Shown here: positions 5,801-40,024 of the stretch, piece after piece
Numbering within the stretch: the first letter of the stretch is position 1
Layout: every line of letters starts with the position of its first letter
NCBI GenBank assembly: GCA_026395915.1
Contig: JAPLXU010000020.1
Coordinates: 18,729 to 82,728 of the forward strand
Reading direction: 5' to 3'
Origin: Candidatus Nomurabacteria bacterium
GTDB taxonomy: Bacteria > Patescibacteriota > Minisyncoccia > Phycocordibacterales > UBA9973
DNA: 64,000 nt
Notes under the pieces: model-generated
Seen by the model: only the letters and a program-made list of their open reading frames with translations
What the model was told of the DNA's origin: nothing
The model's database searches: none
Position numbers and translations under genes: made by a program

Positions 5801-7021
5801 ATGCTTTTCACATACAGAGCAAAATCAAAAGAAGGAGAAATAATGGAAGGAGCGCTAGAAGCTCTCGACCGTTTGACTCTCGCTCGTGACCTTCGAGGTC
5901 GCGGGCTTGTTCCCATCACAATTTCACAACAAAGCGAAAGTTTTTTTAGCAAATTCTCTTTGTCATTCTCTAACATTTTTTCGAGAGTAAAAACAGCCGA
6001 GCTGATTATTTTGACAAAAAATTTAAGCGGAATGTTGCGGTCTGGACTTTCGCTCTATCGAGCATTATCTGTTTTAAAAAAGCAAACAAAAAATCCAAAA
6101 TTAGATAAGATTTTGACATCTGTTTCCGATAATATAAATGCTGGTGAAAACTTGTCGTTTGGGCTTTCAAAATTTCCAGATGTTTTTTCTAAACTTTTTA
6201 TTTCGATGACGCGAGCAGGGGAAGAGTCTGGAAATTTGGCAGATGCTTTGTCAAATATTGGAATAAATTTGGAAAAGTCTCATTCCCTCACAAAAAAGAT
6301 AAAAGGAGCGCTCATTTATCCTGGTGTTATTTTTTCGGCGATGATCGTCATCGGTGTCTTGATGTTCGCTTTCGTCGTGCCGACTTTGGCAAAAACTTTT
6401 CAAGATCTCGGCGCTCCTTTGCCTGCCACGACCAAGCTTCTTATTTTTCTCGGCAACTTTTTTTCGAATCATTTAATTTTAACTTTCGTGATCATAATTG
6501 CTCTCGCTTTCGGTCTGTTTTCTTTTTTTAGGGCGAAATTTATGGAAAAGTATATTGATTTTGCGATTGTTCGTCTGCCTGTTATTGGCAATTTAGCGAA
6601 AGAAATAAATACTGCTAGAACTGCGCGCACTATGTCCTCTCTTCTCTCGTCCGGAGTTTCCATTACTCGCGCGGTAGAAATCACCGAGGACGTTGTGCAA
6701 AATATTTATTACAAAAAAATTTTAAATGACGCAAAAATCGAAGTGGAACGAGGCGCTCCTTTTTCTCAAGCTTTTGCAAACAGCAAAAATCTCTATCCGA
6801 TAATGATGTCGGAGATGATTCAAGTCGGCGAAGAGACTGGAAAATTGTCCGACATGTTGCTCCAGATTGCTCTGTTTTACGAAGAAGAGGTGGAAAACAA
6901 AACAAAAAATCTTTCCACAATTATAGAACCTCTCCTTATGCTTTTCATTGGCGCGGCGGTTGGATTCTTTGCTATTTCGATGATCTCGCCACTTTATTCA
7001 GTCATGGGGAGTATAAAATAA
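5801..7021 (+). CDS. pilC: type IV pilus platform protein PilC (GspF family)
   Basis: 406 aa polytopic protein with duplicated GspF domain signature; immediately downstream of pilB. Confidence 0.85.
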   Translation: MLFTYRAKSKEGEIMEGALEALDRLTLARDLRGRGLVPITISQQSESFFSKFSLSFSNIFSRVKTAELIILTKNLSGMLRSGLSLYRALSVLKKQTKNPKLDKILTSVSDNINAGENLSFGLSKFPDVFSKLFISMTRAGEESGNLADALSNIGINLEKSHSLTKKIKGALIYPGVIFSAMIVIGVLMFAFVVPTLAKTFQDLGAPLPATTKLLIFLGNFFSNHLILTFVIIIALAFGLFSFFRAKFMEKYIDFAIVRLPVIGNLAKEINTARTARTMSSLLSSGVSITRAVEITEDVVQNIYYKKILNDAKIEVERGAPFSQAFANSKNLYPIMMSEMIQVGEETGKLSDMLLQIALFYEEEVENKTKNLSTIIEPLLMLFIGAAVGFFAISMISPLYSVMGSIK

Positions 7022-9634: not shown

Positions 9635-10260
9635 AAATTACCTTTTATATTTCGGAGCGATACCTGTGTGGTAAATGTTATTGGCGCCGGCGCTCGATTA
9701 GGATCTGTGTCGGTTGTGATGGTTATTTTTACCAGTCTTATGGGCGACACATCAGCAGTTGATGAAAGCGCGGGTGTGGTGCCGTCATAGTCTTCGTCGT
9801 AATATTCAAAGATAGTAGAGTTGGTAACGTTAGGCACAAGGGTCGTGACAACCTCGCTCCCTGTGTAGCCTAACGGACTTCCTGTTGGCTTGATTACTCC
9901 CTTTTGTAGATTTGTCCCATTTAAAAAATATCTGACTCTTTCTTTCAATCCATCGTCGTATATATCAGAATAGAAAGTGAAACTTGTGGCACTGGCAAGA
10001 TTGATAGCATACCCTCCGTTACTGCCAGAGCTCGCTGTGCGAATTTCTGCCGCCATTGTTTTTAGAGCTGTTCTTCCAGCATTGACACTTCCCAATTCTG
10101 TATAGACAAAAGAATTATATATCCATATATTTCTGGAAAATAAAGTAAGCACTAGCACAATAAGCACAAAAATTGAAACTGCAACAAGTGTTTCAATCAA
10201 AGTGAATCCTCTTTGCCGACCAAAAATCTGACAGATTTTGTTTTTTAGTTCACTTTTCAT
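9631..10260 (-). CDS. type IV pilin-like protein (prepilin N-terminal methylation motif)
   Basis: GFTLIETLVAVSIFVLIVLVL class III signal motif; 209 aa. Confidence 0.75.
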   Translation of the reverse strand: MKSELKNKICQIFGRQRGFTLIETLVAVSIFVLIVLVLTLFSRNIWIYNSFVYTELGSVNAGRTALKTMAAEIRTASSGSNGGYAINLASATSFTFYSDIYDDGLKERVRYFLNGTNLQKGVIKPTGSPLGYTGSEVVTTLVPNVTNSTIFEYYDEDYDGTTPALSSTADVSPIRLVKITITTDTDPNRAPAPITFTTQVSLRNIKGNL

Positions 10261-10261
10261 A

Positions 10262-11620
10262 TTAGGAAGGAGTTAAAGTGATAATTTTATTTTGCCAAGC
10301 GGAGGAGACGGAATAATTTGAAGTGGTGCTTGTTTGAAAACCTGTTTTTGTCACTGTTATAGTGTATGTTGTGCCACTTCCAAGTCCGTTCCAGAATACT
10401 TGACCTGGAGTCGCGCAAGTGCCTGAGTTTGTGGTTTTTGTTTGGTCAAATGGACTTTTCTGCAGGCGGACGGTCGCTCCATTTATTGGATTACCTGAGG
10501 CGTCTTTTACGGAAATCAATAGTGCAAAACTCACGTGTGGCACGGCGATTAATTTCAAAGTTTTGTTTTCGCTTGGATTAATCGCGAAAGAAGGAAATGG
10601 AATTGCGCCGGCTAAATCGTATGATCCGGAAGTAAGCAGAGCGGAATATGTGTCCCATTCAATAGTTGGAATATTATAGTTGCCAGAAGAATCAGTGGTA
10701 AAACTATGCGCAGGATATTTCAAGACGCCAGTGCCAATGAGTTTTGTCCCAGTCAAAGAAAAACCGATATTGGAAAGCGCTGCGCAAGAAGCGTCAGCGG
10801 AGCTTATCGAGAGAGAACTCAATTTATCTATAGTAAAACTTGGCTGAGTCACTTGTTGAGTGACGACGTTAGCGTCAGGTTTCACTGGGCTTGCTCCGGC
10901 GGCTCCACCTACTGGATATGTTTGGTCTTGGGAGTAGCCAGTCTTCGTGGCGGTAATATTATAAGCTCCGGTGCCTGGTGGCGCGTCGACTATTTTCAGC
11001 CACCCCGAATTGTCGGTAGTATCATCTATTATGGTGTCCGGATTTGTTTGCATATTCACTATGTGTATCGATGCGTTTACGACAGGATTGCCACTGTTAT
11101 CAATTGCCTTTATGAAGAGAGAACCATTGTTGGTGGCGGTTTCGAGAGCTCGTGGCGCAATCATGGTAGTGAAACTTAGAGGAGAAAAGTTTTTGCAATT
11201 TGAACAGGATATATCCAAATCTATCATTTTGTAATCGGCCGGCGAAGTATCTTTAGGCGTACCTGAGCAGGTTGGTGGATTGTTATTTGGACAAGCAGTT
11301 CCATCAAAAGAATCATCAATACTTCTTATCGTGTTGGTCAGTGTGAATATATAATTATTACGCGTAATACTTTGCGTTCTAACAATTTTCCCAACTGGCA
11401 ATCCTCCTACTATTCCAACATCTATATAAGGCAAATTGCGAATAATCTCAAATCTTTCGTTAGCCAGTTCCGTAGCTGTCACTTTTGCTTCCGAGGCTAA
11501 TGTAGCATTCATCAACACGACAAAAGCTTGGTACACTGCCAAAGCTACCAACGCGAAAATTGCGCTACCGACTACTGTTTCAATCAATGTGAACCCATTG
11601 GAGTGTTTGTGTGAATTCAT
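10262..11620 (-). CDS. large type IV minor pilin-like protein (452 aa)
   Basis: NGFTLIETVVGSAIFALVALAVYQAF prepilin motif; Thr/Ser-rich extracellular part. Confidence 0.75.
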   Translation of the reverse strand: MNSHKHSNGFTLIETVVGSAIFALVALAVYQAFVVLMNATLASEAKVTATELANERFEIIRNLPYIDVGIVGGLPVGKIVRTQSITRNNYIFTLTNTIRSIDDSFDGTACPNNNPPTCSGTPKDTSPADYKMIDLDISCSNCKNFSPLSFTTMIAPRALETATNNGSLFIKAIDNSGNPVVNASIHIVNMQTNPDTIIDDTTDNSGWLKIVDAPPGTGAYNITATKTGYSQDQTYPVGGAAGASPVKPDANVVTQQVTQPSFTIDKLSSLSISSADASCAALSNIGFSLTGTKLIGTGVLKYPAHSFTTDSSGNYNIPTIEWDTYSALLTSGSYDLAGAIPFPSFAINPSENKTLKLIAVPHVSFALLISVKDASGNPINGATVRLQKSPFDQTKTTNSGTCATPGQVFWNGLGSGTTYTITVTKTGFQTSTTSNYSVSSAWQNKIITLTPS

Positions 11621-27248: not shown

Positions 27249-30200
27249 ATGAGTATACGAAAATTTGTTTTCTTGTTTTCGTTTATCATTTTTCTCTCCT
27301 TCGCTCCGAAGGTATTTGCCGAGACTCATGTGTCGGGGAATATAGACACAAACACAACTTGGAGTTTGGCTAATAGTCCGTATGTGGTGGATAACACAGT
27401 TATTATTCTTGCAGGAAATACACTTACTGTTGAACCTGGGGTTATCATGAAGTTCTCTTCTAGTTTTGGGAGTTTGGAAGTCGAAGGTACGTTAGATGTT
27501 CCTGGCACAGCAAAATTACCTATTGTTTTCACTTCATACAAAGATGACAACGCGGGAGGTGATACAAATGCCGACGGGACAGCTTCTTTTCCTGAATCTT
27601 TAGATTGGAGAGGAATTATTTTTCATCCTAATTCTGTTGGAAATATTTCCCACGCTTCAATACTTTTTGGCGGGCAATATATTTTCATGTCCTCAGGTTT
27701 CGTTTCTTTTCCTATGATTAGACAAAATGGCGGAACGCTTGCACTTGATAATGTCGAGCTGAGTCCTTACACTTCGCTTGTGGACGGACTCGGGCAAACT
27801 GATGGAAATACTACGATTGCAAATTCACAAATAAAGAATGCGGGGAATAGTATCTCTATCTCTGGTGGCGCTCTTTCTATCCATGGCAGCGTTATTGATG
27901 GAATTAACTATGCACTTAAAAATGACAGCGCGAATATGGTTGATGCGAAAAATAACTGGTGGAGCGATCCTTCTGGTCCTACGCATATAAACAATCCTAA
28001 TGGTGTCGGTGGCCGTATTTCTGGCGACGTATCGTTTTCTCCTTGGCTTAATGTCGATCCGACCATTGCTTTGATAACACTTTCCGCGTCTCCGGATGTA
28101 GGCTTCTCTGGAGATGCGACTAACGCTAGTATTGAACCAAACTTTGGAAACACTGGCACCGTCTTCACATTTAAAACGGTTTATACCAATTCTTTCAATC
28201 AATCGCCAACGAGTGTGCGTCTTGTGATAACAAGAGGCGACAGCAATGCGCCGTGCCAAGCGATAGGCGGTGGAGGTCCGCCACAACCTGCTTTTTTCTT
28301 CAAACAAATTTTTGCTATTACCGCATACGCTTCGGAAGATGACGGATGCGTGATGAGTTTAGACATGAATAGCTCAGCAATATTGCATGACGGTGATTAT
28401 GCCAATGGAGAACAATATGTCATTAAGCAAAAATTTCCTGTCGGAAATTACAAGTATCGTATAGAAGCGGATAATACGCGATACCCAGAAACTGGAAGTT
28501 TTGCATTTCAAGTGAACGAAGATTGTTGCTCAAGCATTCTTTTCTTGCCAGGGATTGAAGCGAGCAGATTGTATAAGCAAAAAACAGCGCTTGGTTTGCT
28601 GGTGGAAGATCAGCTTTGGGAACCGAATGTAAACAGTGATGTGGAAGATTTATATCTGAATATCGACGGGACGAGCAAAAATTCGAATATTTATACGAGA
28701 GATATTATAAAAGAAAGCAATGTTCCGATTCCGATGGGTCCTCTTGGGCAGAACATTTATAAAAGTTTTTCCAATGCGATGGATGGGTTGGTTGATGATG
28801 AAAAAATCGGCGAGTGGAAACCGTTTGCTTATGATTGGCGACAAAGTGTCGATGATATTGTAAATAACGGAACAAAGTATCAAAGTGGCAATGTGTCGCT
28901 CGTCGCTACATTGCAATCACTTGTCAATTCAACTAAAAATAAAAATGGAAAAGTAACAATTGTCGCGCACAGCAATGGTGGACTTTTAGCTAAAGCTCTT
29001 TTGAAAAAACTTCAGGACGATAAAGTTGCGGGAAGAAATAATTTGATTGACAGTGTGGATGTGTTGATTTTAGTTGCAACGCCGGAGATAGGCACAGCAA
29101 GCGCCGTGCCGGTGGTGTTGCATGGATATGATCAAGAAATTGCGGGCGGTTGGTTGATGGATGAAGTTCGCGCTAGGGAAGTGGGGCGAAACATGCTTGG
29201 AGCCTTCGGACTTTTGCCGAGCAGAGAATACATCAATAGGGTAAGCGCTTCGCCAGTGACATTTGTGGATAACTTAATTCCTTCGAATGTCACAACGAAA
29301 CTTGTCAAAACTTTCGGCAGCGCGATTGATTCGTATGCCGAATATAAAAGTTTTCTTTTTGGCGGAGAGGGGAGGATAAATCCAACAATAAGCCAAACAA
29401 ATTTACCGATTAGTTTGTCGCAAAGTTTGTTTGCTAAAACAGAAAGTTTGCATGATAGCATTGACTCTTTTGTTCCGCCGGCGAGTTTGCGAGTGATTGA
29501 AGTCGCTGGTTGGGGATTGGACACCATTGCCAGTTTTGAATATTATCCGAGATTAGATTGTGGTAGTAATCTTTGCGCTTCGTATATATTAGACGAACGG
29601 CCTCGTTTTACTTCAGATGGAGACAAAACAGTGGTTGTCCCAAGCGCGCAATATATGAGTGTTAATGGAAATGCGGAGAAATATTGGGTGGATTTACCCG
29701 TCCACAATAGACAATTACCATTAGGATTAAGAAGAAATAGAAATCATGGAGATATTTTAGAAGTTACTTCATTAAATAATTTGATTCAGTCTGTTGTAGA
29801 GAAAAAGGATATCATCTTTGATGATGTTTTGAAAAACTCTGAACCCGCAGACAACTCAAATCGTTTAAGATTGTCCATTCACTCACCAGTTACACTAGAT
29901 GCATACGATGCAAATGGAAATCACACAGGAAAAATTTGTCCGCTAACCTCAGACTTTTGTTACAAAGAAGAAAATATTGTCAATTCGTCTTATGTGGAAT
30001 TTGGAGAAGGAAAATATCTCAATCTTCCGGAAGATCAAATGAAAAGTATCAAACTTCAGGGCACAGATGTGGGAACATTTACATACAGTTCAGAAAAAGT
30101 TTTGCCAAATGGAACTTCTATTACTTCATTTTTTGTAGATATTCCTGTAACAACACAGACACAAGCACAGATAATTCTTAATCCAAGCACTCAAACACCG

Positions 30201-30602
30201 CAACTGGCCTTGGATGTGACGGGCGATGGAACGACTGATTTTATTGTTACCCCAAATTCAGCTTTTGATCCTGTGCTTTTTCTGCAAGTAATGAGAAAAA
30301 CTGTTGATTCTTTTGACATATCTAAACAGCAGAAAAACGCGCTTGAAAAACGAATCGATGATACAATAAAAGCGATACAGAAGGGTAAAATAAATAAAGC
30401 AAAAATAAAAATAGAGCAGTTCAAAAAGATTTTGATAATATATCCGAAAGAAAGTGATAGAGATAGGCGAGAAAGAGAAAGAAGAAATGAACGAGAACAT
30501 GAAAGAGAGCGCAGAGAGCATAGAAAACCGGGACAATTGTCGTCAGCTGATGCGCAGACCTTAATTACGTTATTGAATCAATTATTAGATAATTTGAATT
30601 AG
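27249..30602 (+). CDS. giant secreted protein: parallel beta-helix N-terminal region, LCAT/PGAP1-like alpha/beta-hydrolase (lipase) domain, charged RE-repeat C-terminus (1117 aa)
   Basis: signal peptide; LFLPGIEASRLY and nucleophile elbow VTIVAHSNGGLLA (GxSxG); C-terminal RRERERRNEREHERERREHR. Confidence 0.7.
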   Translation: MSIRKFVFLFSFIIFLSFAPKVFAETHVSGNIDTNTTWSLANSPYVVDNTVIILAGNTLTVEPGVIMKFSSSFGSLEVEGTLDVPGTAKLPIVFTSYKDDNAGGDTNADGTASFPESLDWRGIIFHPNSVGNISHASILFGGQYIFMSSGFVSFPMIRQNGGTLALDNVELSPYTSLVDGLGQTDGNTTIANSQIKNAGNSISISGGALSIHGSVIDGINYALKNDSANMVDAKNNWWSDPSGPTHINNPNGVGGRISGDVSFSPWLNVDPTIALITLSASPDVGFSGDATNASIEPNFGNTGTVFTFKTVYTNSFNQSPTSVRLVITRGDSNAPCQAIGGGGPPQPAFFFKQIFAITAYASEDDGCVMSLDMNSSAILHDGDYANGEQYVIKQKFPVGNYKYRIEADNTRYPETGSFAFQVNEDCCSSILFLPGIEASRLYKQKTALGLLVEDQLWEPNVNSDVEDLYLNIDGTSKNSNIYTRDIIKESNVPIPMGPLGQNIYKSFSNAMDGLVDDEKIGEWKPFAYDWRQSVDDIVNNGTKYQSGNVSLVATLQSLVNSTKNKNGKVTIVAHSNGGLLAKALLKKLQDDKVAGRNNLIDSVDVLILVATPEIGTASAVPVVLHGYDQEIAGGWLMDEVRAREVGRNMLGAFGLLPSREYINRVSASPVTFVDNLIPSNVTTKLVKTFGSAIDSYAEYKSFLFGGEGRINPTISQTNLPISLSQSLFAKTESLHDSIDSFVPPASLRVIEVAGWGLDTIASFEYYPRLDCGSNLCASYILDERPRFTSDGDKTVVVPSAQYMSVNGNAEKYWVDLPVHNRQLPLGLRRNRNHGDILEVTSLNNLIQSVVEKKDIIFDDVLKNSEPADNSNRLRLSIHSPVTLDAYDANGNHTGKICPLTSDFCYKEENIVNSSYVEFGEGKYLNLPEDQMKSIKLQGTDVGTFTYSSEKVLPNGTSITSFFVDIPVTTQTQAQIILNPSTQTPQLALDVTGDGTTDFIVTPNSAFDPVLFLQVMRKTVDSFDISKQQKNALEKRIDDTIKAIQKGKINKAKIKIEQFKKILIIYPKESDRDRRERERRNEREHERERREHRKPGQLSSADAQTLITLLNQLLDNLN

Positions 30603-30603
30603 T

Positions 30604-31017
30604 ATGAAAAAGAAATTTATAATTTTACCAATCTTTTTACTCATTTTAGTTTTTGTTGTTTCTTTGCCGTGTGACAAGCAACTTACATGTAGTGGTCCAC
30701 TTTCAAATTACGTGAATTATCCAGGTTTATGGTTTTTAGTTTTGATTCCCCTCAGTTTGCTAGCTCTCACTCTTAATGACAGAAAGCACAAATTTTGGCT
30801 AAAATTTACAGGTATATTTTTTGCGATATCGATGTTTTTTGTGTTTTTAATTCCAGAAACTGCTAGAGGCATTATGCTCAATCCTGATAGAGAATCCGCT
30901 AATTGGTTTTTTGTTGGTTTGTATTCTTTTATTTCTATAATTTATTTTTTTGTTCAATTTTTTAAAAACAAAAACAAAAATATTCAAGAAAAACCAGAGA
31001 AAAACTATTTTATATAA
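30604..31017 (+). CDS. small 4-TM membrane protein with Cys-x-Cys loop
   Basis: 137 aa; LPCDKQLTCSGP loop after TM1; starts 2 nt after lipase gene stop. Confidence 0.6.
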   Translation: MKKKFIILPIFLLILVFVVSLPCDKQLTCSGPLSNYVNYPGLWFLVLIPLSLLALTLNDRKHKFWLKFTGIFFAISMFFVFLIPETARGIMLNPDRESANWFFVGLYSFISIIYFFVQFFKNKNKNIQEKPEKNYFI

Positions 31018-31318
31018 ATATCGCTAGTGTTGGCGACATCGCGAATTTACTTTATACTCTTGAAGTTCGAGCTGAGGAAATCCCGCTTGATCTAGAGACG
31101 CTTTCTAGTCTGAGAAATAGAATACAATATCTCAATTTCGCTCAAAGTCTGAAGAATGGTTTCTTGAAACGTGTCGAGACGCTTGAAAAGAAAAGGGAAC
31201 TCGCTAAAACGTTGTTAGATTTTTCGAAAAGCATTATGGAAAAAGCCGACAAAGGCAAGATTTCCGATATCGACGCGCAAGGGCTCATTGGTTTATTTAT
31301 TCAAATGCAAAATATGAT

Positions 31319-31744
31319 ATGATTAAAAATATGAGTACAAAAAAAATAACGTTTTTGTTATTAATTGTTTCTTTAGTAGGTTTTGGATTAGGATGTATCT
31401 TAAAAAATTCCACAGAACTTAGTTTGTGCATGGTTAGTGAACCAACTTGCATAAATAATCTTACTTGGATTGGTAATGGTTTTTTCTATGGCATGTCTGC
31501 ATTGTCACTTGTATTTTTTGTATTAATTTTTACCCAAAAAGCTTTTCCTGCATGGAAGAAATTTGCGATTTGGTTTGTGCCTCTAGCGACCCTGCTTTTT
31601 ATTTTTTATCCGAACCCGGGCTCCGGTGATCTCTTTTCTCCGTATCCTGAGCAAGTATTCAAATGGGTGAGTATCTTGTATGTTGTGATAAGCGTTTTGA
31701 TTATTGCGTTCAACAGCAAGAAGCAATCTACTTTAGTTAAGTAA
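31319..31744 (+). CDS. small 4-TM membrane protein, paralog-like of 30604..31017
   Basis: 141 aa; same topology and Cys loop (ELSLCMVSEPTCINNL) after TM1. Confidence 0.6.
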   Translation: MIKNMSTKKITFLLLIVSLVGFGLGCILKNSTELSLCMVSEPTCINNLTWIGNGFFYGMSALSLVFFVLIFTQKAFPAWKKFAIWFVPLATLLFIFYPNPGSGDLFSPYPEQVFKWVSILYVVISVLIIAFNSKKQSTLVK

Positions 31745-32196
31745 AGTGAATTGATTGTACCAAAATTATTTTCAACGGAGACAATGCCTCCAGTTATTTC
31801 GATCCTCGTGAAAGAGGGGAAAATAAAAAAGGAAGGAAAAACCGGCGAAGCTGTTTTTTACACCAAACTCTATTTTTTTTCTTTACTTTTTCCAAGCTCG
31901 AGTATAAAGTGTAGGTGGATATTGTTCTTCAGCTCAAAATTTGGTGATCTGACAAACGTCCCCGGACAAGAGCCAGTTCAAGATCCACGTTGGTAAAGGA
32001 GGTTGCCATTAAAGAGACACACCCCCCTTAGCCTTCATCTTCGTATAAAACTTGGTTGGTGTATCTTCTACACCAATGCGCTGACGCAATGTCACACCGC
32101 AGGGCCTCGGATATCTATCCTTGGCCCCCTTTTTCTTTTTATTCAACTTTTCAATTTTTTCTTTTAATTAATTTTTAACTTTGATACAATAAACTC

Positions 32197-32625
32197 ATGG
32201 AAACACATCCGAGAGTCGGATTGGGAATAGTCATCGTCAACAAAGACGGGAGAGTTTTGGTTGGCAAACGAAAGGGCGGTCATGCCCAAAAATATTCCAT
32301 TCCAGGAGGACATTTGGAAATGGGAGAGACTTTCGAGCAGGCGGCTATCCGAGAGGCGAAAGAGGAAACTAACCTGGACATCTTTGAGCCGAAATTAATT
32401 TGTGTCATAAATGACCTCGAGACATACAGTGAGGAAGGGAAGCACTACGTGTCTGCTGGACTGCTCGCGACAAAATATTCCGGCGAATTGAAAGTTATGG
32501 AACCGGAAAAATGCGAAAGCTGGAGCTGGGTTGATCCAAAAAATCTTCCCGAACCGCACTTCGACGCGAGCCGTATGGAAGTCAAATGTTATTTGAATGG
32601 AAGTTTTTATGAGGTGGTAAAATAG
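32197..32625 (+). CDS. NUDIX hydrolase (MutT-like)
   Basis: Nudix box GGHLEMGETFEQAAIREAKEETNL. Confidence 0.8.
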   Translation: METHPRVGLGIVIVNKDGRVLVGKRKGGHAQKYSIPGGHLEMGETFEQAAIREAKEETNLDIFEPKLICVINDLETYSEEGKHYVSAGLLATKYSGELKVMEPEKCESWSWVDPKNLPEPHFDASRMEVKCYLNGSFYEVVK

Positions 32626-32824
32626 CAAGTATTTTTTTTCTTTACTTTCTCTGGGTGCGGGTGTAAGGTTTAAGTGGATTTCATCTTTTTGCTTGTCGGC
32701 AGTCTAAATAACAATTGAGTATCAAAATCGTAATTCAAAGCAGGAAGATGAAAAGGGGGAAAATGGAGAAAGGAGGAGGCACTCGTAACAGCGGGCGCAT
32801 AAGGCAAAAACGTCTCATGTTTTA

Positions 32825-32853
32825 GCCGGTCCCACAGGGCGACCGGCTTTTTT
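32825..32853 (+). terminator. intrinsic terminator gccggtcccacagggcgaccggc + tttttt
   Basis: perfect 7-bp GC stem plus U-run; 60 nt upstream of small ORF start. Confidence 0.7.
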
Positions 32854-32914
32854 GTTTGTAATTCTTGATAATTTTTCAAATTGCGATATGCTTATGGGGA
32901 AGGAGAACGATGTA

Positions 32915-33016
32915 ATGAAAATAATATTGATTGTTGGAGCGATTGTGCTTGTCGTTGGGTTCGGCGGGATCTATCTTCTTGGGGTCTTGATGGACAAAAT
33001 GGCAGGTCCGCGATAG
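32915..33016 (+). CDS. 33-aa hydrophobic peptide MKIILIVGAIVLVVGFGGIYLLGVLMDKMAGPR
   Basis: RBS aggagaa 6 nt upstream, bracketed by two strong terminators; competes with overlapping 77-aa ORF 32881..33114 that runs through the downstream terminator. Confidence 0.35.
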   Translation: MKIILIVGAIVLVVGFGGIYLLGVLMDKMAGPR

Positions 33017-33043
33017 CTTTGTTTGTTGGTTTTCTTCAAGTGC

Positions 33044-33076
33044 CCCGGCCCACACATTCTGGCCGGGATTTTTTTT
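33044..33076 (+). terminator. intrinsic terminator ccccggcc-cacacattct-ggccggg + tttttttt
   Basis: read directly. Confidence 0.7.
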
Positions 33077-33106
33077 ATAAAAATTTTATGCTAAAATCAA
33101 TAAATA

Positions 33107-36100
33107 ATGGCTGAAAAAGATGAAAAAGGAAAAAGCGACGCCGCCCTGCGCGAAGAGCGGGTTTTGGAGTTTTGGAAAGAAAATAAAATTTTTGAAAAGT
33201 CTCTGAAACAAACCGAGAACGGGAAAGAATATATTTTTTACGAAGGCCCGCCGACGGCAAACGGCAAGCCGGGGATTCATCACTTGGAGGCGCGAGCTTT
33301 CAAGGATGTCATTCCTAGATACAAAACAATGCGCGGTTTTCATGTCCGCCGAAAATGCGGATGGGACACGCATGGTCTGCCAGTGGAGCTTCAGGTAGAA
33401 AAAAAACTCGGACTCAATTCTAAAAAAGCTATCGAAGAATATGGCGTTGCTAAATTTAACCAAGAATGCAAGGAAAGCGTCTGGGAGTATTTGGATATTT
33501 GGAATAAATTCACGAAGCGCATCGGTTTTTGGCTTGATCAAGAGCACCCCTATGTGACTTATCAAAACAATTATATCGAGTCTGTCTGGAATATAATCAA
33601 GAAAGTTAACGGGCAAAAACTTTTATACAAGGATTACAAAGTTGTGCCGTGGTGTCCGAGATGCGGGACGGCTCTCTCTTCGCACGAGCTCGCGCAGGGG
33701 TACGAAGATGTGAAAGATTTGTCGGTTTATGTGAAGTTTCGCGTACTTGGCGGAGGAACTGTCCTCTCGGGGTCGCTGTCTGGGTCTGCTGACCCAGCGC
33801 TCACTCTCGGTTCGTCAGCCTGCGAGAGACCCCGCGACGACAGTTCCTCCGCCGACACTTTTTTCCTTGCTTGGACGACGACGCCTTGGACTCTTCCGGG
33901 TAATGTGGCTCTGGCTGTTGGCAAGGATATTGATTATGTGAAAATATCCGCCAAAGGCGGATCCGCCTCTGGAGGAAAAATCGGAAATGAAATTTATATT
34001 TTAGCAAAGGCTCGGCTTTCGGTAATCACTGAGCCGTTTGAGATCATCGAGGAAATGAAAGGTAAAGATTTAATTGGTTTTGCATACGAACCACTTTTTA
34101 CGTTTCTTGCCGACATTATTTCGGAAAGCGAACCTGTCCGCAATGCTTCAGGCATAACTGATGCAGGCGAAAAACCAAAATTGGAAAAAGCCTACAAAGT
34201 TTACGGCGCGGATTTTGTGAATACGGAAGACGGAACGGGCATCGTGCACACAGCCGTGATGTATGGGCAAGATGATTTCGTGTTGGGGACACAGATTGGT
34301 TTGCCGAAGCATCACCTCGTTGGGCTTGATGGCAAATTCTTAGCGGGGACGGGATTTTTGGAAGGCAGATTTGTGAAAGAAAAAGACGCAAACGGCAAGC
34401 CGACCTTGGATGTGGACATTATTAAATATCTGACTGAGAAAAATCTGTTTTTCAAAAAGGAAAATTATGAGCACTCGTATCCGCATTGTTGGCGATGTCA
34501 CACGGCGCTCATTTACTACGCTCGGGATTCTTGGTATATCCGAATGTCGGATCCGAAAATCAAAGAGAAATTAATCAACGAGAACAAAAAAATAAATTGG
34601 GAGCCGTCCTATATTAAAGACGGGCGTTTCGGTGAATGGTTGAAGGATGTCAAAGATTGGGCAATATCGCGCGAACGATATTGGGGATCGCCACTGCCTG
34701 TCTGGATCTGCGAGTCTTGCAAAAAAGTTGATGTGATCGGAAGCGTAGCTGATTTGAAAGCCAAAACGAAAAAATCCGGCAATAAATATTTTGTGATGAG
34801 ACATGGGGAGGCGGAGAACAATGTCCTTGATATTGTTTCAAGCAATCCAAATAATACTCACCATCTTACGGAAAAAGGAAAGAAACAAATAGAAAAAGCA
34901 GCTCAATTTTTAATTGATAAAAATATCGATATAATTTTTACTTCTACATTTTTACGAGCACGAGAGACATCAGATTTAATCGCTGGAATAATGAAGTTTT
35001 CTCCACAAGATATAAGAACAGATTCAAGATTAATTGAAATAAATGACGGAACTTTTGACAATAAATCTGTAAAGCAAGTTTATGATTTTTTTGTAAATAA
35101 TAATTTAGATAGATATGATACTGGTTGTCAGGGTGGCGAGAGTATAGTTGATGTTAAAAAAAGAGTGGGGGAATTTATTTATGAAATTGATCAAAGATAT
35201 CAAAATAAAAATATATTAATTATTACGCACGAAGATACAGCTTGGGCATTGTTTTCCGTGATTAATGGTTTTAACAAAAAAGAAACAACTCAAGATAAAA
35301 AATATGATTTTATGCTAGATAATGCTCAAATCAGAGAACTTGATTTTGTTCCTATCCCTCATAACGAAAATTATGAACTTGATTTGCACAAGCCTTACAT
35401 TGATGAAGTTAGTCTTGTTTGTGCCCGTTCGACAAGCTCAGGACAAGCTTGCGGTGGAAAATTAATTAGGACAAAAGAGGTGATGGACGTTTGGCTTGAT
35501 TCTGGCGCTATGCCTTTTGCTCAAGATCACTATCCTTTCGAAAATAAAAAATGGGTGGAGGGGAAAGGTTATCCCGCGGATTTTATTTCGGAGGCCATAG
35601 ACCAGACTCGCGGATGGTTTTACACTTTGCATGCTATCGGGACGCTGATGGGGCGGGGGATGGCTTACAAAAATGTCATTTGTCTTGGTCATCTTCTAGA
35701 CGCGTCTGGCAAAAAAATGTCCAAGTCTCTCGGCAACATTGTCGATCCTTGGACGATGATTGAAAAATACGGCGCAGACACGCTTCGCCTATGGATGTAT
35801 TCTGTGAACCAACCGGGCGAATCTAAAAATTTTGACGAGAAGACAGTCAACCTGCTTCATCAGCAAGTTTTCGGTTTGCTTTACAACGTGCTCGCTTTTT
35901 ACGAACTATACAGAGATAAGAACTTAGAGAAGAACCTCACCCCTTCGCCCCTCTCCTTGTTAAGGAGAGGAGTTGGGGAGGGGTCTAACGTTTTGGACAA
36001 ATGGATCTTGGCCAGACTCGATGAATTGACGGAGCTTTCCACAAAAAATCTCGACAGTTATAAACTGCTCGAGCCGGTGAGAGGTATACAAGATTTTATC

Positions 36101-36841
36101 GGAGATCTTTCCACTTGGTATTTGCGTCGTTCGCGTGAACGAATAAAAAATGGCGACCTTGAAGCCAAAGCGACTCTTTATTTTGTTTTGAAAAATCTCG
36201 CGAAAATCATAGCCCCTTTTGCGCCTTTCTCAGCAGAAGATATTTGGCGCCGATTAAAAAATGAAAACGATTCGGAGAGCGTGCATTTGGCGAAGTGGCC
36301 GAACATGTCAAGGACGGTCCTTGACATGTTCGGCAGTAAAAAATCAAAAGTTCTCAAAAACATGGAAAATGTCCGAAAAATCGTGACTCTTGGACTTGAG
36401 GCTCGCCAAAAAGCTGGCATCAAGGTTCGTCAGCCACTTGCCATGCTCACTCTCAAGAATTTAGATTTTCATGAACTTGGTCCAAGTCTGGTTGAACTTA
36501 TAAAAGATGAAATTAATGTTAAAGAAGTAGTTATTGATACAATCATATCAGATGAAGCTATGTTGGATATTGAAATTACTCCGGAACTAAAACAAGAAGG
36601 GAATTATCGCGAGCTGGCGCGGGCGATTCAAGATATGCGTAAAAAGATGGGTCTGACGCCGAGCGATAGAGTTTCTCTCGTTTTTGAAACAGGCGAGGAA
36701 GGCAAAAAGTTAGTCCAAAAATTTGAGACTGAAATGAAAAAAACCATCTTGGCGGCGGAAATAAATTTCGGGCAAAATAACGGCGAGGAAATAAAAGTAG
36801 ACAGTTTGGTGTTCAAGATAAAAATTGGTAAAATAAAATAA
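33107..36841 (+). CDS. ileS: isoleucine--tRNA ligase (type 2) carrying three in-frame insertions including a histidine-phosphatase (PGAM-like) domain
   Basis: HIGH-like PGIHHLEA, AWTTTPWTLP, WAISRERYWGSPLP, KMSKSLGN; 1244 aa, about 200 aa longer than typical. Confidence 0.9.
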   Translation: MAEKDEKGKSDAALREERVLEFWKENKIFEKSLKQTENGKEYIFYEGPPTANGKPGIHHLEARAFKDVIPRYKTMRGFHVRRKCGWDTHGLPVELQVEKKLGLNSKKAIEEYGVAKFNQECKESVWEYLDIWNKFTKRIGFWLDQEHPYVTYQNNYIESVWNIIKKVNGQKLLYKDYKVVPWCPRCGTALSSHELAQGYEDVKDLSVYVKFRVLGGGTVLSGSLSGSADPALTLGSSACERPRDDSSSADTFFLAWTTTPWTLPGNVALAVGKDIDYVKISAKGGSASGGKIGNEIYILAKARLSVITEPFEIIEEMKGKDLIGFAYEPLFTFLADIISESEPVRNASGITDAGEKPKLEKAYKVYGADFVNTEDGTGIVHTAVMYGQDDFVLGTQIGLPKHHLVGLDGKFLAGTGFLEGRFVKEKDANGKPTLDVDIIKYLTEKNLFFKKENYEHSYPHCWRCHTALIYYARDSWYIRMSDPKIKEKLINENKKINWEPSYIKDGRFGEWLKDVKDWAISRERYWGSPLPVWICESCKKVDVIGSVADLKAKTKKSGNKYFVMRHGEAENNVLDIVSSNPNNTHHLTEKGKKQIEKAAQFLIDKNIDIIFTSTFLRARETSDLIAGIMKFSPQDIRTDSRLIEINDGTFDNKSVKQVYDFFVNNNLDRYDTGCQGGESIVDVKKRVGEFIYEIDQRYQNKNILIITHEDTAWALFSVINGFNKKETTQDKKYDFMLDNAQIRELDFVPIPHNENYELDLHKPYIDEVSLVCARSTSSGQACGGKLIRTKEVMDVWLDSGAMPFAQDHYPFENKKWVEGKGYPADFISEAIDQTRGWFYTLHAIGTLMGRGMAYKNVICLGHLLDASGKKMSKSLGNIVDPWTMIEKYGADTLRLWMYSVNQPGESKNFDEKTVNLLHQQVFGLLYNVLAFYELYRDKNLEKNLTPSPLSLLRRGVGEGSNVLDKWILARLDELTELSTKNLDSYKLLEPVRGIQDFIGDLSTWYLRRSRERIKNGDLEAKATLYFVLKNLAKIIAPFAPFSAEDIWRRLKNENDSESVHLAKWPNMSRTVLDMFGSKKSKVLKNMENVRKIVTLGLEARQKAGIKVRQPLAMLTLKNLDFHELGPSLVELIKDEINVKEVVIDTIISDEAMLDIEITPELKQEGNYRELARAIQDMRKKMGLTPSDRVSLVFETGEEGKKLVQKFETEMKKTILAAEINFGQNNGEEIKVDSLVFKIKIGKIK
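33759..33852. repeat. 94-bp GC-rich compound palindrome (ggcggaggaactgtc ... gacagttcctccgcc) in-frame in ileS just before AWTTTPWTLP
   Basis: outer 15-bp perfect inverted repeat plus inner ctgggtc/acccag hairpin; encodes GGGTVLSGSLSGSADPALTLGSSACERPRDDSSSAD. Confidence 0.8.
34781..35380 (+). other. inserted histidine phosphatase (phosphoglycerate-mutase-like) domain within ileS; AT-rich relative to rest of gene
   Basis: RHGEAENN (RHG motif), LTEKGKKQ, TSTFLRARETS, ILIITHEDTAW; lies between WICESCKKVDVIGS and LDLHKPYIDEV which are normally about 45 aa apart. Confidence 0.65.
35936..35984. repeat. GC-rich hairpin cccctctccttgttaaggagagg with G/C-rich flanks, in-frame in ileS (encodes TPSPLSLLRRGVGEGS)
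   Basis: palindrome read directly; same ctctcct/aggagag core as elements at 56461 and 62019. Confidence 0.75.
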
Positions 36842-36857
36842 ATAAAGGTATCGCTTT

Positions 36858-36868
36858 CTGCTATCGCA
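36858..36868 (+). promoter_or_regulatory. 11-mer ctgctatcgca upstream of regulator gene 36884; second copy at 37402
   Basis: exact 11-mer shared by the two promoter regions flanking the regulator gene. Confidence 0.4.
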
Positions 36869-36883
36869 GAATTTGCTACCTTT

Positions 36884-37381
36884 GTGGGATTATTATATAA
36901 TAGGCTTATGTCAATCATCCTTGATATTTTAGAAGAACTAAATCATAGCAATCTTCGTTACAAGGGAATGCATGTAAATTTGCTTGGCATACCTAAATTA
37001 TCTTCATATAAATATGAATCTCTTAAATCTGGAATTAGTAAATTAAAAAAGAAGCAATATATAACCAAAAACAATTCCGGCTGGATAATGACACCCAAAG
37101 GGAAGAAATATTTTGAAAGAAAATATAATTCCTTAACACAATTTGATTCTCCTTTTTCAAAAAATAATTCTAAAAATTTGCTTGTCATGTTTGATATACC
37201 AGAGGTAAAAAAAGCGGAGAGGGAATGGTTCAGGTGGCATCTCAAAAAGTTCAATTATATCATGATCCAGAAAAGTGTCTGGCGAGGACCTTCTCCTTTA
37301 CCTAAAGAGTTTCTTGATTATGTGAAAAAGATAGGACTTCGGAAAAACTTAAAAATGCTTAAGATATCTAAAACTTATTAG
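36884..37381 (+). CDS. winged-helix regulator with C-terminal Cas2/PaaX_C-like signature (165 aa)
   Basis: C-terminal LLVMFDIPEVKKAEREWFRWHLKKFNYIMIQKSVWRGP (hhh-FDIPE ... R ... L ... GF ... QxSVW); paralog at 44039. Confidence 0.55.
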   Translation: MGLLYNRLMSIILDILEELNHSNLRYKGMHVNLLGIPKLSSYKYESLKSGISKLKKKQYITKNNSGWIMTPKGKKYFERKYNSLTQFDSPFSKNNSKNLLVMFDIPEVKKAEREWFRWHLKKFNYIMIQKSVWRGPSPLPKEFLDYVKKIGLRKNLKMLKISKTY

Positions 37382-37401
37382 TAATAAAAAGGTACCAAAC
37401 T

Positions 37402-37412
37402 CTGCTATCGCA
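37402..37412 (+). promoter_or_regulatory. second copy of ctgctatcgca, between ggtacc inverted repeats, upstream of 2H/MBL gene pair
   Basis: read directly; followed by -10-like tatggtaaaat. Confidence 0.4.
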
Positions 37413-37478
37413 AAAAATGGTACCTGTGATACCTTTAAGTGTTTTTCTTGATTTTTAGTTTTATGGTAAAATAGAATT

Positions 37479-37997
37479 ATGGAAAGTAAATTTAAATTCA
37501 TGTGTGAAAAAAATAAATATACAATTTCTGCGACAAACACTATTAGTTTGCCAGTTTTACTGAAAGATTTGCCTAGCGAAGTAGTGATAAATGGCAACAA
37601 ACTTATACTAAAATCTTCTTTTCATGTCAGTCTAGTGTGTATCAATGAAATTATAAAGAAATACTGTATCTCTGTTCCAAATTTTAGGAATTTAGTGGTG
37701 AAAGATTTTTGTGATTTTGTAAAAACAAATGACATATATCTTTTGAATTATCTCGAAGAATTTAGATTTGTCACAGAAAATGATCTAAAGACAGTGATAG
37801 TTATATGTAAGGTATCTAACTTAGATAAATTTTTCGATTTTATAAATAAAAAATACAAATTGAAAATCGAATATCCTCCCACTCATGTAACCTTATACAC
37901 CTTGGAGGGAAAATTAGGAATTTTTCTAATTGATGCTAATGATATAAAAAATCTAACAAAATCTATTCCAAATCCAATAGAGCATTCATTATTATGA
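37479..37997 (+). CDS. 2H phosphoesterase superfamily protein (LigT/Acb1-like), 172 aa
   Basis: two H-x-[ST]-x motifs preceded by hydrophobics: SSFHVSLV and PTHVTLYT, about 98 aa apart; size typical of minimal 2H enzymes. Confidence 0.45.
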   Translation: MESKFKFMCEKNKYTISATNTISLPVLLKDLPSEVVINGNKLILKSSFHVSLVCINEIIKKYCISVPNFRNLVVKDFCDFVKTNDIYLLNYLEEFRFVTENDLKTVIVICKVSNLDKFFDFINKKYKLKIEYPPTHVTLYTLEGKLGIFLIDANDIKNLTKSIPNPIEHSLL

Positions 37998-38614
37998 AAA
38001 TTACAAAATTCGAACAATCTGGGGTTATTTTTGAAACAAACGGGGGATTTCGTTTAGCTTTGGATATTGGTAAGTATACGCCATTGGAAAAATTGGCAGG
38101 CGTTACGGCGGATGCAGTGATTGTGTCTCATATTCATGGCGATCATTTTTCTTTGGATCAAATTAAAAAATTATCTCCAAAAAAATTGTATCTGGGAAGT
38201 GAATGTAAAGAAGCCTTAGGTAGAGCAAAGTTTCCGTTTGAAATTGTGGAAATAAAGGCCGGAGATCATATTGATACTGGAGGTATTGTAGTCGATATTT
38301 TTAGTGTTGATCATGGTCCGAATGCTTCTCCGTCGCTTCGAGATAATTTCGGTTTTCTTATCACAGTCGATGGAGAGAAGATATATTTTGCAGGAGAAAT
38401 GTTTTACGAATCGGGGATTGAAGTAAAAAATCTTGAGGTTGATTACGCTTTTTTCCCAATTGGGACTTTTTACACTTTTGGTCCAAATGAAGCGTTTAAT
38501 TTTGCCAAAAAATTCAAAAAAATCGGGAAAATTATTTTGATGCATTATGAAAAAACCCCAGAAACCAGAAATCAATTTTTAAAGTTATCAGAAGGTCATT
38601 TTGTTGTTGAGTAA
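37994..38614 (+). CDS. small MBL-fold metallo-hydrolase (206 aa)
   Basis: HxHxDH motif VIVSHIHGDHF; ATGA overlap with preceding gene indicates translational coupling. Confidence 0.7.
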   Translation: MKITKFEQSGVIFETNGGFRLALDIGKYTPLEKLAGVTADAVIVSHIHGDHFSLDQIKKLSPKKLYLGSECKEALGRAKFPFEIVEIKAGDHIDTGGIVVDIFSVDHGPNASPSLRDNFGFLITVDGEKIYFAGEMFYESGIEVKNLEVDYAFFPIGTFYTFGPNEAFNFAKKFKKIGKIILMHYEKTPETRNQFLKLSEGHFVVE

Positions 38615-38626
38615 TAAAAAATTCTA

Positions 38627-39232
38627 ATGCATCACATTTATCACACGGAAGGAATAATCTTGGGAAGCAGGGGTTACGGCGAAGCGGGTAAGTATTATTA
38701 TATTTTCACCCGCGATTTGGGAATGATCACGGCTTCGGCTCAAGGTGTGCGCAAGATGTCTTCCAAGCTCCGTTTCGTTCTGCAGGACTTTTCTTATATC
38801 AAAGTTGACCTCGTGCAAGGCAAAAATATTTTTCGAGTGACGAATGTCATAAAAACAAATAAATTGGAGCAAATCACAAAGACGCCGGAAACTTTTGCTG
38901 TCTTTGTAAACATCGCGCGTCTACTTCGACGCCTGCTCGCCGGTGTCGAGCCGAACGAAACTCTATTCGCGGACTTGTTGCAAGGTCTGTCTATTTTAGA
39001 AAAAATTTCTGACAAGGGCGAATTGGCTCCCGACTTTCAAGACAGCTTGCGTAACATTGAGGCGATTATAGTTTTGCGAATACTGAACAATTTGGGATAC
39101 ATAGGCGAAAATGAAATGTTGCAGAATTTAGTCAAATCTCCGTTTGAAGAAAATCTTGTGTTCGAAATTTCGAGAGACAGAGCGAAAGTGTTGCATCAAA
39201 TCAACAAGGCTCTCAAAGAAACTCATTTATAA
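38627..39232 (+). CDS. recO: DNA repair protein RecO-like (N-terminal OB-fold type, no zinc finger)
   Basis: EGIILGSRGYGEAGKYYYIFTRDLGMITASAQGVRKMSSKLRFVLQ pattern matches RecO N-terminus. Confidence 0.55.
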   Translation: MHHIYHTEGIILGSRGYGEAGKYYYIFTRDLGMITASAQGVRKMSSKLRFVLQDFSYIKVDLVQGKNIFRVTNVIKTNKLEQITKTPETFAVFVNIARLLRRLLAGVEPNETLFADLLQGLSILEKISDKGELAPDFQDSLRNIEAIIVLRILNNLGYIGENEMLQNLVKSPFEENLVFEISRDRAKVLHQINKALKETHL

Positions 39233-39238
39233 AAAGGT

Positions 39239-39270
39239 TCGCCCCGATTGCTTTGTAGCTTTCGGGGCGA
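39239..39270. terminator. hairpin cgccccga-N14-tcggggcg between convergent genes
   Basis: 8-bp GC stem; U-rich tract on minus-strand side. Confidence 0.55.
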
Positions 39271-39286
39271 GTTGTAGATGGGGCGC

Positions 39287-40024
39287 TTACTTTTTCTGCA
39301 GTGGGTTTGGGTTCGGTGTATATTTCTGCGCCTCTTTTATGTCTGCTTCCTCTTGCTCCCTCATCTCTGGAGAAATGAGATATTCATCGGGCTGGCCATC
39401 CCCCGTGAATTTTTTGACGGGGAAGAAGTAGTCTCCGTGACCTGTTTGACCGATGATCACAGAGTTTCCGATCAAGGGTTGAGGACCCTTCCAGATTGAG
39501 AGCGGAACTACTAACCATCGTTCCTCTTTCTTAAAAATGAGGAATTGAAGCGATTCGGATATCTCGTGATGGCTGAAGGCGATTGATCGTTCAACTAGGG
39601 TAAATGGTTTTTTCTCGAGATAAAGAAAGTCTGGACCCTTGGCATCGATAAATACAAATTCTTTGATGACTTGCGATGCAAACGCCTTCCAGACTTCAGG
39701 AGTTTTGAACTCCAAGTTGGCCTCACCTGTTTTAGCAGGATAGACAAACTCAAAGTCCGTTCCCTTGTCTGCCGAACCTCCAATGTAATACATCGTTTTA
39801 ACTTCCCCGGAGTCACCGAATTCCGCTTTGAAACAACAGCGCATTGGCCATACCGTATGATCGGTCCAGTGAACCATGACTTTAGTGCACCTTCCTTCGT
39901 CGCCATATCCACCATACCAAGGCTGGGCCACGTACTGGCCCTTTGGCATAGTCTGGCCGAACAGCGACACCGAGGTAAGAACGAGAACCGACACCAACAC
40001 CGACAGAGTAAGCAATTTTTTCAT
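39287..40024 (-). CDS. secreted hypothetical protein, GC-elevated (245 aa from MKKLL start)
   Basis: signal peptide MKKLLTLSVLVSVLVLTSVSLFGQ with GGAG RBS 7 nt upstream; region visibly GC-richer than neighbours; no family recognised. Confidence 0.6.
   Translation of the reverse strand: MKKLLTLSVLVSVLVLTSVSLFGQTMPKGQYVAQPWYGGYGDEGRCTKVMVHWTDHTVWPMRCCFKAEFGDSGEVKTMYYIGGSADKGTDFEFVYPAKTGEANLEFKTPEVWKAFASQVIKEFVFIDAKGPDFLYLEKKPFTLVERSIAFSHHEISESLQFLIFKKEERWLVVPLSIWKGPQPLIGNSVIIGQTGHGDYFFPVKKFTGDGQPDEYLISPEMREQEEADIKEAQKYTPNPNPLQKK

Follow-up and report, generated by a model that had tools for sequence, protein, structure and literature searches.

A predicted histidine phosphatase module within isoleucyl-tRNA synthetase of Nomurabacteria and its counterpart gene adjacent to ileS in other Patescibacteria

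The gene ileS of a Candidatus Nomurabacteria genome (assembly GCA_026395915.1, contig JAPLXU010000020.1) codes for an isoleucyl-tRNA synthetase (IleRS) that carries a predicted histidine phosphatase in the midst of its catalytic domain, and the segment encoding the phosphatase differs sharply in nucleotide composition from the rest of the gene. What would a phosphatase do within IleRS, and how did it come to be there? We addressed these questions in the stretch of 64,000 nucleotides that contains the gene (positions 18,729 to 82,728 of the contig, forward strand), hereafter the window, to which the coordinates below refer unless another locus is named. A first-pass annotation of this stretch had described the insert as a complete histidine phosphatase domain, explained its foreign appearance by a recent in-frame acquisition and entertained a tolerated selfish insertion. 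The evidence presented below leads us to consider it likely that the module belongs to a phosphatase family partnered with IleRS, that this phosphatase was internalized in Paceibacteria, and that the copy in the window was swapped in from a relative with a lower GC content.

The phosphatase module and its host protein

The gene and the module inside it are delineated as follows.
33107–36841, + strand: ileS, type-2 IleRS of 1244 aa, host of the phosphatase module (open reading frame, TIGR00392, Pfam)
34784–35365, + strand: His_Phos_1 module, residues 560–753 (hidden Markov model built from relatives; Pfam E = 2e-28)

Searched on its own, segment 34781–35380 matches the Pfam family His_Phos_1 (PF00300) with 105.1 bits (E = 5e-30, cut-off 21.7), and in the complete protein the same family is detected at residues 562–747 (E = 2.2e-28, 99.7 bits, same cut-off), where it splits the match to tRNA-synt_1 in two. 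The motifs RHG (residues 565–567), LRARET (616–621), RLIEIN (641–646) and ITHED (706–710) are all located in the module, as is the entire catalytic set, i.e., R565 and H566 (34799–34804), R617, E644 and H708, which aligns with the catalytic positions of PspA (4IJ5), H566 falling on the His9 nucleophile. These five residues are invariant in an alignment of 69 sequences and reach 90% conservation or more in a set of 120 relatives. The AlphaFold2 (AF2) model of the module alone has a mean predicted local distance difference test score (pLDDT) of 91 and a predicted template modeling score (pTM) of 0.88, and Foldseek aligns it with the phosphatase-type structures 4IJ5/4IJ6, 1H2E, 6NRU and 4QIH at template modeling (TM) scores of 0.70–0.78; the predicted fold is that of histidine phosphatase branch 1, apparently formed autonomously. 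The ratio of nonsynonymous to synonymous substitution rates (dN/dS) of the module, calculated for pairs with unsaturated synonymous sites only, is 0.06–0.15 and close to that of the flanking synthetase. Taken at the level of sequence, the module is an intact predicted histidine phosphatase under purifying selection. The first-pass annotation was thus right about the complete, in-frame domain and the motifs quoted for it.

The module misses, by a wide margin, the equivalog cut-offs of archaeal phosphoglycerate mutase (dPGM_arch, NF038349; 79.3 against 225 bits), pgm_1 (TIGR01258; 25.5 against 81.7), CobC (66.2 against 162.9), PspA (56.4 against 350) and SixA (41.3 against 74.5). Because no cut-off of a characterized equivalog is reached, we assign the module to a putative distinct subfamily of His_Phos. 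A mutase (dPGM) identity was considered and dropped because of these cut-off failures and because the closest structures are of the phosphatase type. The PADLOC models of anti-phage defense systems gave no match to the module at E values up to 0.01.

The host protein is a member of type-2 IleRS. It scores 844.9 bits with the ileS model TIGR00392 (cut-off 621.4), and Pfam identifies tRNA-synt_1, Anticodon_1 and the type-2 C-terminal DUF5915. The editing motifs TTTPWTLPGN and GTGIVHTA of connective peptide 1 (CP1) are present, and two class I motifs bracket the insertion.
33272–33283, + strand: GIHH, non-canonical GXHH form of the class I HIGH motif (position in the open reading frame)
35714–35728, + strand: KMSKS catalytic loop motif, intact, 3' of the insertion (position in the open reading frame)

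Given that all testable defining features of the two families are found, the protein belongs to both type-2 IleRS and His_Phos_1, and the body of the synthetase appears intact. The protein is 100% identical to GenBank MCX6752691.1 (Candidatus Nomurabacteria), which, like its module-bearing relatives, is labeled only 'class I tRNA ligase family protein'. The GXHH variant, known from mupirocin hyper-resistant IleRS2 (PMC10485003), is also seen in many of the module-bearing relatives. Apart from the module, the window ileS contains six micro-insertions of its own (33752–33832, 33839–33853, 33947–33976, 34139–34177, 35426–35449 and 35948–35974), which are rich in Ser, Gly and Ala, have a GC content of 0.65–0.67 in two cases, and are missing from at least 70% of the 120 relatives; the one at 35426–35449 encodes the 8-aa sequence RSTSSGQA between the two Cys of the second pair of the zinc knuckle.

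The site of the insertion is defined by three conserved elements.
34658–34720, + strand: upstream flank, with the WAISRERYWG motif and CESC, the first Cys pair of the Cys4 zinc knuckle (aligns with residues 411–482 of 1ILE)
34763–34783, + strand: KTKKSGN, conserved basic linker at the N-terminal junction of the module (conservation in relatives)
35381–35458, + strand: downstream flank, with the second half of the zinc knuckle, DLHKPYID ... C-ARSTSSGQA-CGG (aligns with residues 488–504 of 1ILE)

In the alignment with the IleRS of Thermus thermophilus (1ILE), the upstream part of the window protein, ending in LKAKTKK, corresponds to residues 411–482 and LDLHKPYID resumes at residue 488, so about 200 aa stand in the place of a loop of about five residues between positions 482 and 488. 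The module accordingly lies between the CxxC and C...CGG halves of the Cys4 zinc knuckle 3' of the WxISRxRxWG motif. Insert-less IleRS of Patescibacteria show the same clean gap at this site, in agreement with the insertion point proposed from the sequence alone. On both sides the junctions are in frame and consist of conserved sequence, and the reading frame is intact; in the KTKKSGN linker, K, K, S and N are invariant among relatives, with a conservation of 90% or more for T and G. As for an intein or homing insertion, Pfam finds only His_Phos_1 between the halves of tRNA-synt_1, with no Hint, endonuclease or transposase part.

Embedded and standalone phosphatases in Patescibacteria

The architecture is by no means confined to the window. 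PF00300 is carried by all 120 of the best full-length IleRS matches (63–70% identity overall), which come from metagenome-assembled genomes named Nomurabacteria, Paceibacterota and Patescibacteria. A profile of the module, run against one genome per GTDB species, returned at least 124 loci, including those of Zambryski-, Adler-, Taylor-, Nomura-, Colwell- and Wolfebacteria; exactly one module lies within a long ileS open reading frame in 84 of the 84 loci analyzed, and no second copy is found within 4 kb of the embedded loci. Long-read contigs contain the embedded form as well. A word-indexed search with the insert only yielded nine matches, mostly frameshifted fragments, and underestimates the spread compared with the full-length and exhaustive searches. 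This distribution suggests that the module is an old and widespread component of IleRS in Patescibacteria, and because the same architecture recurs in many independent assemblies, an assembly artifact and a one-off capture are excluded. The abrupt compositional change within a single gene is, admittedly, what a chimera produced inside ileS by assembly or binning would look like, but with the frame intact, the junctions conserved and the architecture present in hundreds of independent assemblies, long-read ones included, we assign a negligible probability to this explanation, and the concern about chimerism raised at the outset can be laid aside.

Furthermore, an exhaustive protein search revealed genuine standalone proteins of about 190 aa that are related to the module, and a search seeded with one of these (P0180) found hundreds of relatives in Patescibacteria. 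The standalone homologue is 41–61% identical to embedded modules, and for several of the latter, the nearest relative is a standalone protein, with identity of up to 61%. In each of four contigs inspected, the standalone gene (about 189 aa) is located between argS and an insert-less ileS (931–982 aa); in three of these, it ends right at, or beyond, the start of ileS, and in the fourth (L089), the two genes are separated by a toxin-antitoxin pair together with a standalone HD_3 gene. The order argS, phosphatase, ileS, recO is found in many lineages. When metagenomes were scanned with the standalone profile, 80 loci matched, 74 of them with enough flanking sequence. Among these 74, ileS starts no more than 150 bp downstream in 47 and no more than 1.4 kb downstream in 4, approximately 19 represent modules embedded at the zinc-knuckle site of other IleRS lineages, and 4 are without ileS; in total, about 95% of the members of the standalone-profile family that were found either adjoin ileS or sit within it. 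At one locus with a standalone phosphatase, L088, an Avd-like gene and a reverse transcriptase follow ileS on its 3' side (9716–10567 in that locus) and may represent a diversity-generating retroelement.

This split-or-fused (Rosetta-stone) pattern argues for a real functional link between the phosphatase and IleRS throughout the phylum, and transitions between fusion and separation appear to have taken place more than once. The alternative is that the phosphatase is an enzyme of general metabolism, such as an archaeal-type dPGM, a phosphoserine phosphatase or a PhoE-like protein, that was joined to ileS for economy of expression only. The best similarities in NCBIfam and PDB, to dPGM_arch, CobC, PspA and PhoE, and the compact operons of Patescibacteria are compatible with this possibility. 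However, the cut-offs of the respective equivalogs are missed widely (79 against 225, 66 against 163 and 56 against 350 bits), nearly all of the family members found adjoin ileS or form part of it, and repeated independent internalization into synthetases, including valyl-tRNA synthetase (ValRS), is hard to explain without a functional link, so we regard a purely metabolic role as unlikely.

Embedding is indeed more extensive in some other lineages. The exhaustive search identified IleRS in which two or three modules occupy other loops (in the set P0186, P0168, P0238 and P0253), the additional sites being after the second Cys pair of the knuckle, after DCWFESGSMPYAS, and about 70 aa after KMSKS; a ValRS with four His_Phos modules is found in the same set. 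P0253 is encoded on contigs of up to 1.06 Mb, and its first module copy has RHA in place of RHG. Another IleRS (P0172, from JGI, 1066 aa) combines an in-frame IS200-like Y1 transposase domain (residues 340–461) with a His_Phos module and a C-terminal GNAT domain.

Modules at about four sites, up to three of them in IleRS and four in ValRS, together with the in-frame transposase domain of P0172 and the movement of modules between lineages (see below), are what one could expect if class Ia synthetases were permissive landing pads for a selfish or mobile insertion that is tolerated with no benefit to the host. Against this stand the invariance of the catalytic residues and the low dN/dS, the Pfam composition of the window protein, which includes no intein, endonuclease or transposase part, and the existence of the standalone form as a conserved gene abutting ileS upstream, with the embedded and adjacent states being complementary. 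A tolerated selfish insertion, as entertained in the first-pass annotation, is therefore improbable in our assessment, and we retain a phosphatase family functionally linked with IleRS as the preferred explanation.

Other phosphoesterases were observed at the same loci. Four of the module-bearing IleRS (P0038, P0066, P0097 and P0101) contain an HD phosphohydrolase domain within DUF5915 at the C-terminal end (approximately residues 1117–1270), and the standalone HD_3 gene of L089 lies directly 5' of ileS (6193–6819 in that locus), which makes a second fused-or-split pair at the same locus. The HD domains and genes hint at a broader phosphoesterase theme around IleRS, which we note as a lead only.

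Exchange of modules and the composition of the window copy

How, then, did a domain that is shared by so many relatives come to look foreign in this particular gene? Relatives are 72–77% identical to the window protein in the body of the synthetase and 33–61% identical in the insert, and the modules fall into discrete, deeply diverged types. Some pairs of relatives share 86% identity in the body and 32% in the module, whereas others share 70% and 76%, respectively. Since the sub-regions of the body correlate poorly among themselves, a global correlation of identities is a weak test, and we replaced it with bootstrapped quartets analyzed per region. In eight of nine selected quartets without the window protein, the body and the module recovered opposite topologies, with support from 198–200 of 200 bootstrap replicates for the body and 200 of 200 for the module; the same strong conflict (198–200 of 200) is seen in two quartets with the window protein among their members. 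The conflict is confined to the module, and four sub-regions of the body on both sides of it mostly concur. Such discordance between the phylogenies of insert and host, whose comparison had been proposed as a check on the domain, suggests that modules have been exchanged between IleRS lineages.

The composition of the window copy points in the same direction. The insert has a GC content of 0.29 and a GC content at third codon positions (GC3) of 0.17–0.19, compared with 0.43–0.46 and 0.44–0.49, respectively, in the flanks; values as low as those of the insert are found in 0.6% of 600-bp windows and in 1% of 200-codon coding windows. A change-point scan delimits the anomaly.
34826–35467, + strand: low-GC3 tract, putative recombination tract

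Within this tract, GC3 is 0.168 against 0.473 in the remainder of ileS (log-likelihood ratio 37, compared with a maximum of 14 in shuffles), and both boundaries fall within conserved sequence. In 84 homologous loci, the difference between body and module is 0.016 ± 0.031 for GC and 0.034 ± 0.064 for GC3, so that the contrast in the window (0.15 and 0.28, z of 4.3 and 3.8) is the most extreme; a few other loci among the 84 also deviate, in either direction. The relatives that carry the module type of the window (P0049/L084 and P0016/L085) come from low-GC genomes, and their modules have a GC3 of 0.18–0.21, which is approximately that of the window module. The module in the window thus looks like a recent homologous replacement from a relative of lower GC content that has not yet been ameliorated.

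The greater AT-richness of the insert noted from the sequence alone is therefore real, and the description as an in-frame and anomalous segment stands; what does not stand is a first and recent origin. Had this ileS acquired a foreign phosphatase gene recently and for the first time, the GC3 contrast, the most extreme of the 84 loci, would be accounted for, but the same domain, at the same site and with the same conserved junctions, is found in at least 84 other loci besides all of the 120 closest IleRS, the composition of the module matches that of the host gene in most of the other loci, and the closest relatives do carry the module. We thus attribute the foreign look to a recent swap, and consider a first-time capture very unlikely.

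Several points weigh against our reading as a whole. None of the characterized His_Phos equivalogs matches the module at its cut-off. The AF2 model of the full-length protein (1200 aa, alignment of 69 sequences) is of low confidence, with a pLDDT of 65, a pTM of 0.44 and values below 50 for the Rossmann fold, which is too poor to place the phosphatase site relative to the synthetic and editing sites. Pairwise identities of the body sub-regions are only weakly correlated (rho of 0.13–0.23), so that noise or saturation accounts for part of the global non-correlation. The selection of quartets was made post hoc, on the basis of discordance. No close donor was found, the best match to the window module being only 61–65% identical. 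Finally, hidden paralogy, i.e., a multi-module ancestor followed by differential loss, could be a source of the discordance, although it does not cover the GC contrast.

The last point can be extended into an explanation that dispenses with recombination with another lineage, in which hidden paralogy and relaxed or unusual local constraint together give rise to the low GC and the discordant phylogeny. The existence of multi-module synthetases, the weak correlation among the body sub-regions and the failure to find a close donor all fit such a scenario. A resident paralogue, however, would share the synonymous composition of its host, whereas the window module differs sharply from ileS in GC3, with sharp boundaries; moreover, 84 of 84 loci of the clade have one module at one site, and the conflict is limited to the module, with the flanking parts of the body mostly concordant. 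We accordingly judge this scenario to be of small probability and retain an exchange of modules, with replacement of the window copy, as the preferred reading.

A second compositional anomaly is located downstream of ileS. Between ileS and a Lactamase_B_3 gene (37994–38614), there is an AT-rich stretch of 1.1 kb (36884–37997, GC 0.25–0.30) with two open reading frames, of which the first (36884–37381) is PaaX_M/Cas2-like and the second is without a family match. The stretch has no counterpart in the closest relative (L086), in which the Lactamase_B_3 gene and recO come directly after ileS, and a low-GC donor may have been the source of this second, likewise recent import; about 1.4 kb of ileS with normal GC content lies between it and the low-GC3 module tract. 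Upstream, a gene for a NUDIX hydrolase (32197–32625) recurs near ileS in the related loci L001, L083, L084 and L089, and the wider neighborhood with smpB, infC, rplT, argS and recO is common to related loci. The 480 bp between the NUDIX gene and ileS contain no long open reading frame and give no match to Rfam; a search of Rfam over 30000–40000 gave no match either, and no tRNA genes were found in the 64-kb window.

Possible function and relation to known systems

The observations described above can be combined into a tentative scenario. The module would be a catalytically competent small histidine phosphatase, similar to PhoE, CobC and PspA, from a family that spans Patescibacteria and acts jointly with IleRS. 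Many lineages would supply it from the separate gene of about 189 codons abutting or overlapping the start of ileS, and in Paceibacteria, including this Nomurabacteria genome, it would have moved into the surface loop of IleRS between the Cys pairs of the zinc knuckle and, given this location, be tethered to the catalytic domain. Several diverged module types would then have been swapped among IleRS lineages by recombination via the conserved flanks, the window copy being a swapped-in allele of a lower-GC relative. The activity that we infer is the removal of a phosphomonoester from a ligand handled by IleRS. Candidate substrates include a 2'/3'-phosphorylated 3' end of tRNA-Ile, a phosphorylated adenine nucleotide at the synthetic site and phosphorylated IleRS itself, each of which, taken separately, has a low probability.

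A more specific version of this idea is that the module is a repair or counter-toxin device: after an attack by a kinase or pyrophosphokinase toxin, it would free IleRS, or tRNA-Ile carrying a 2'/3'-phosphate or pyrophosphate at its 3' end, of the phosphate that blocks it; the shuffled module types would then reflect an arms race, and the HD genes and domains would supply a phosphodiesterase partner. We mention this as a rather speculative possibility that is unlikely to hold in this form.

The small phosphatases PhoE/YhfR (1H2E), CobC (6NRU), PspA (4IJ5), Rv2419c and TIGAR resemble the module in fold (TM 0.70–0.78), in the RHG motif with the Arg/Glu/His set and in size (about 190 aa). Unlike them, the module scores below every equivalog cut-off and is embedded in, or encoded beside, a tRNA synthetase. 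With type-2 IleRS that have a GXHH motif, such as the IleRS2 of Priestia megaterium (8C8U; PMC10485003), the window protein shares the complete IleRS2 body, its own features being the editing motifs, KMSKS, Anticodon_1 and DUF5915 and GIHH in place of HIGH; it differs in that its zinc knuckle accommodates an additional catalytic domain of about 195 aa. The structural work on IleRS2 (PMC10485003) makes no mention of a phosphatase domain, and neither does a 2026 survey of 96,219 IleRS domain architectures.

A precedent for IleRS with an extra enzymatic domain is provided by NCBIfam NF040702 (ileS_w_GNAT), in which the extra domain is a different one; the window protein reaches only 289.9 bits with this model (cut-off 1999) and has no acetyltransferase domain according to Pfam. 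Fusion of His_Phos_1 with a nucleic-acid enzyme is known for the Rv2228c-type RNase H/CobC-like acid phosphatase (NF005567), to which the module shows similarity with E = 6e-18, but that fusion is end-to-end, involves another partner and has a cut-off of 326 bits against the 65 bits of the module. With regard to the alternation of the same protein between a neighboring gene and a synthetase domain, the system resembles other Rosetta-stone pairs and trans-acting factors of aminoacyl-tRNA synthetases (aaRS), such as AlaX, YbaK and HINT-LysRS. The known accessory factors of aaRS are deacylases or adenylate hydrolases, and a literature search turned up no paper in which a phosphatase is described as accessory domain, or as partner, of an aaRS. 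The impression recorded in the first-pass annotation that a fusion of this kind is new thus agrees with the published record that we searched.

Aminoacyl-tRNA synthetases are among the best-studied enzymes, and the architecture appears to have gone undescribed although it is visible in public protein sets, where the module-bearing proteins are hidden under the generic label of class I tRNA ligases, an annotation gap. The exchange of modules would make this family a clean natural case of domain-cassette swapping within an essential gene. In Patescibacteria (the Candidate Phyla Radiation), an entire major radiation, a dedicated predicted phosphatase abuts ileS or resides in the catalytic core of its product, which points to an unrecognized step in the biology of tRNA-Ile or IleRS in minimal genomes, a step that may serve to repair, to regulate, or to remove a product or an inhibitor.

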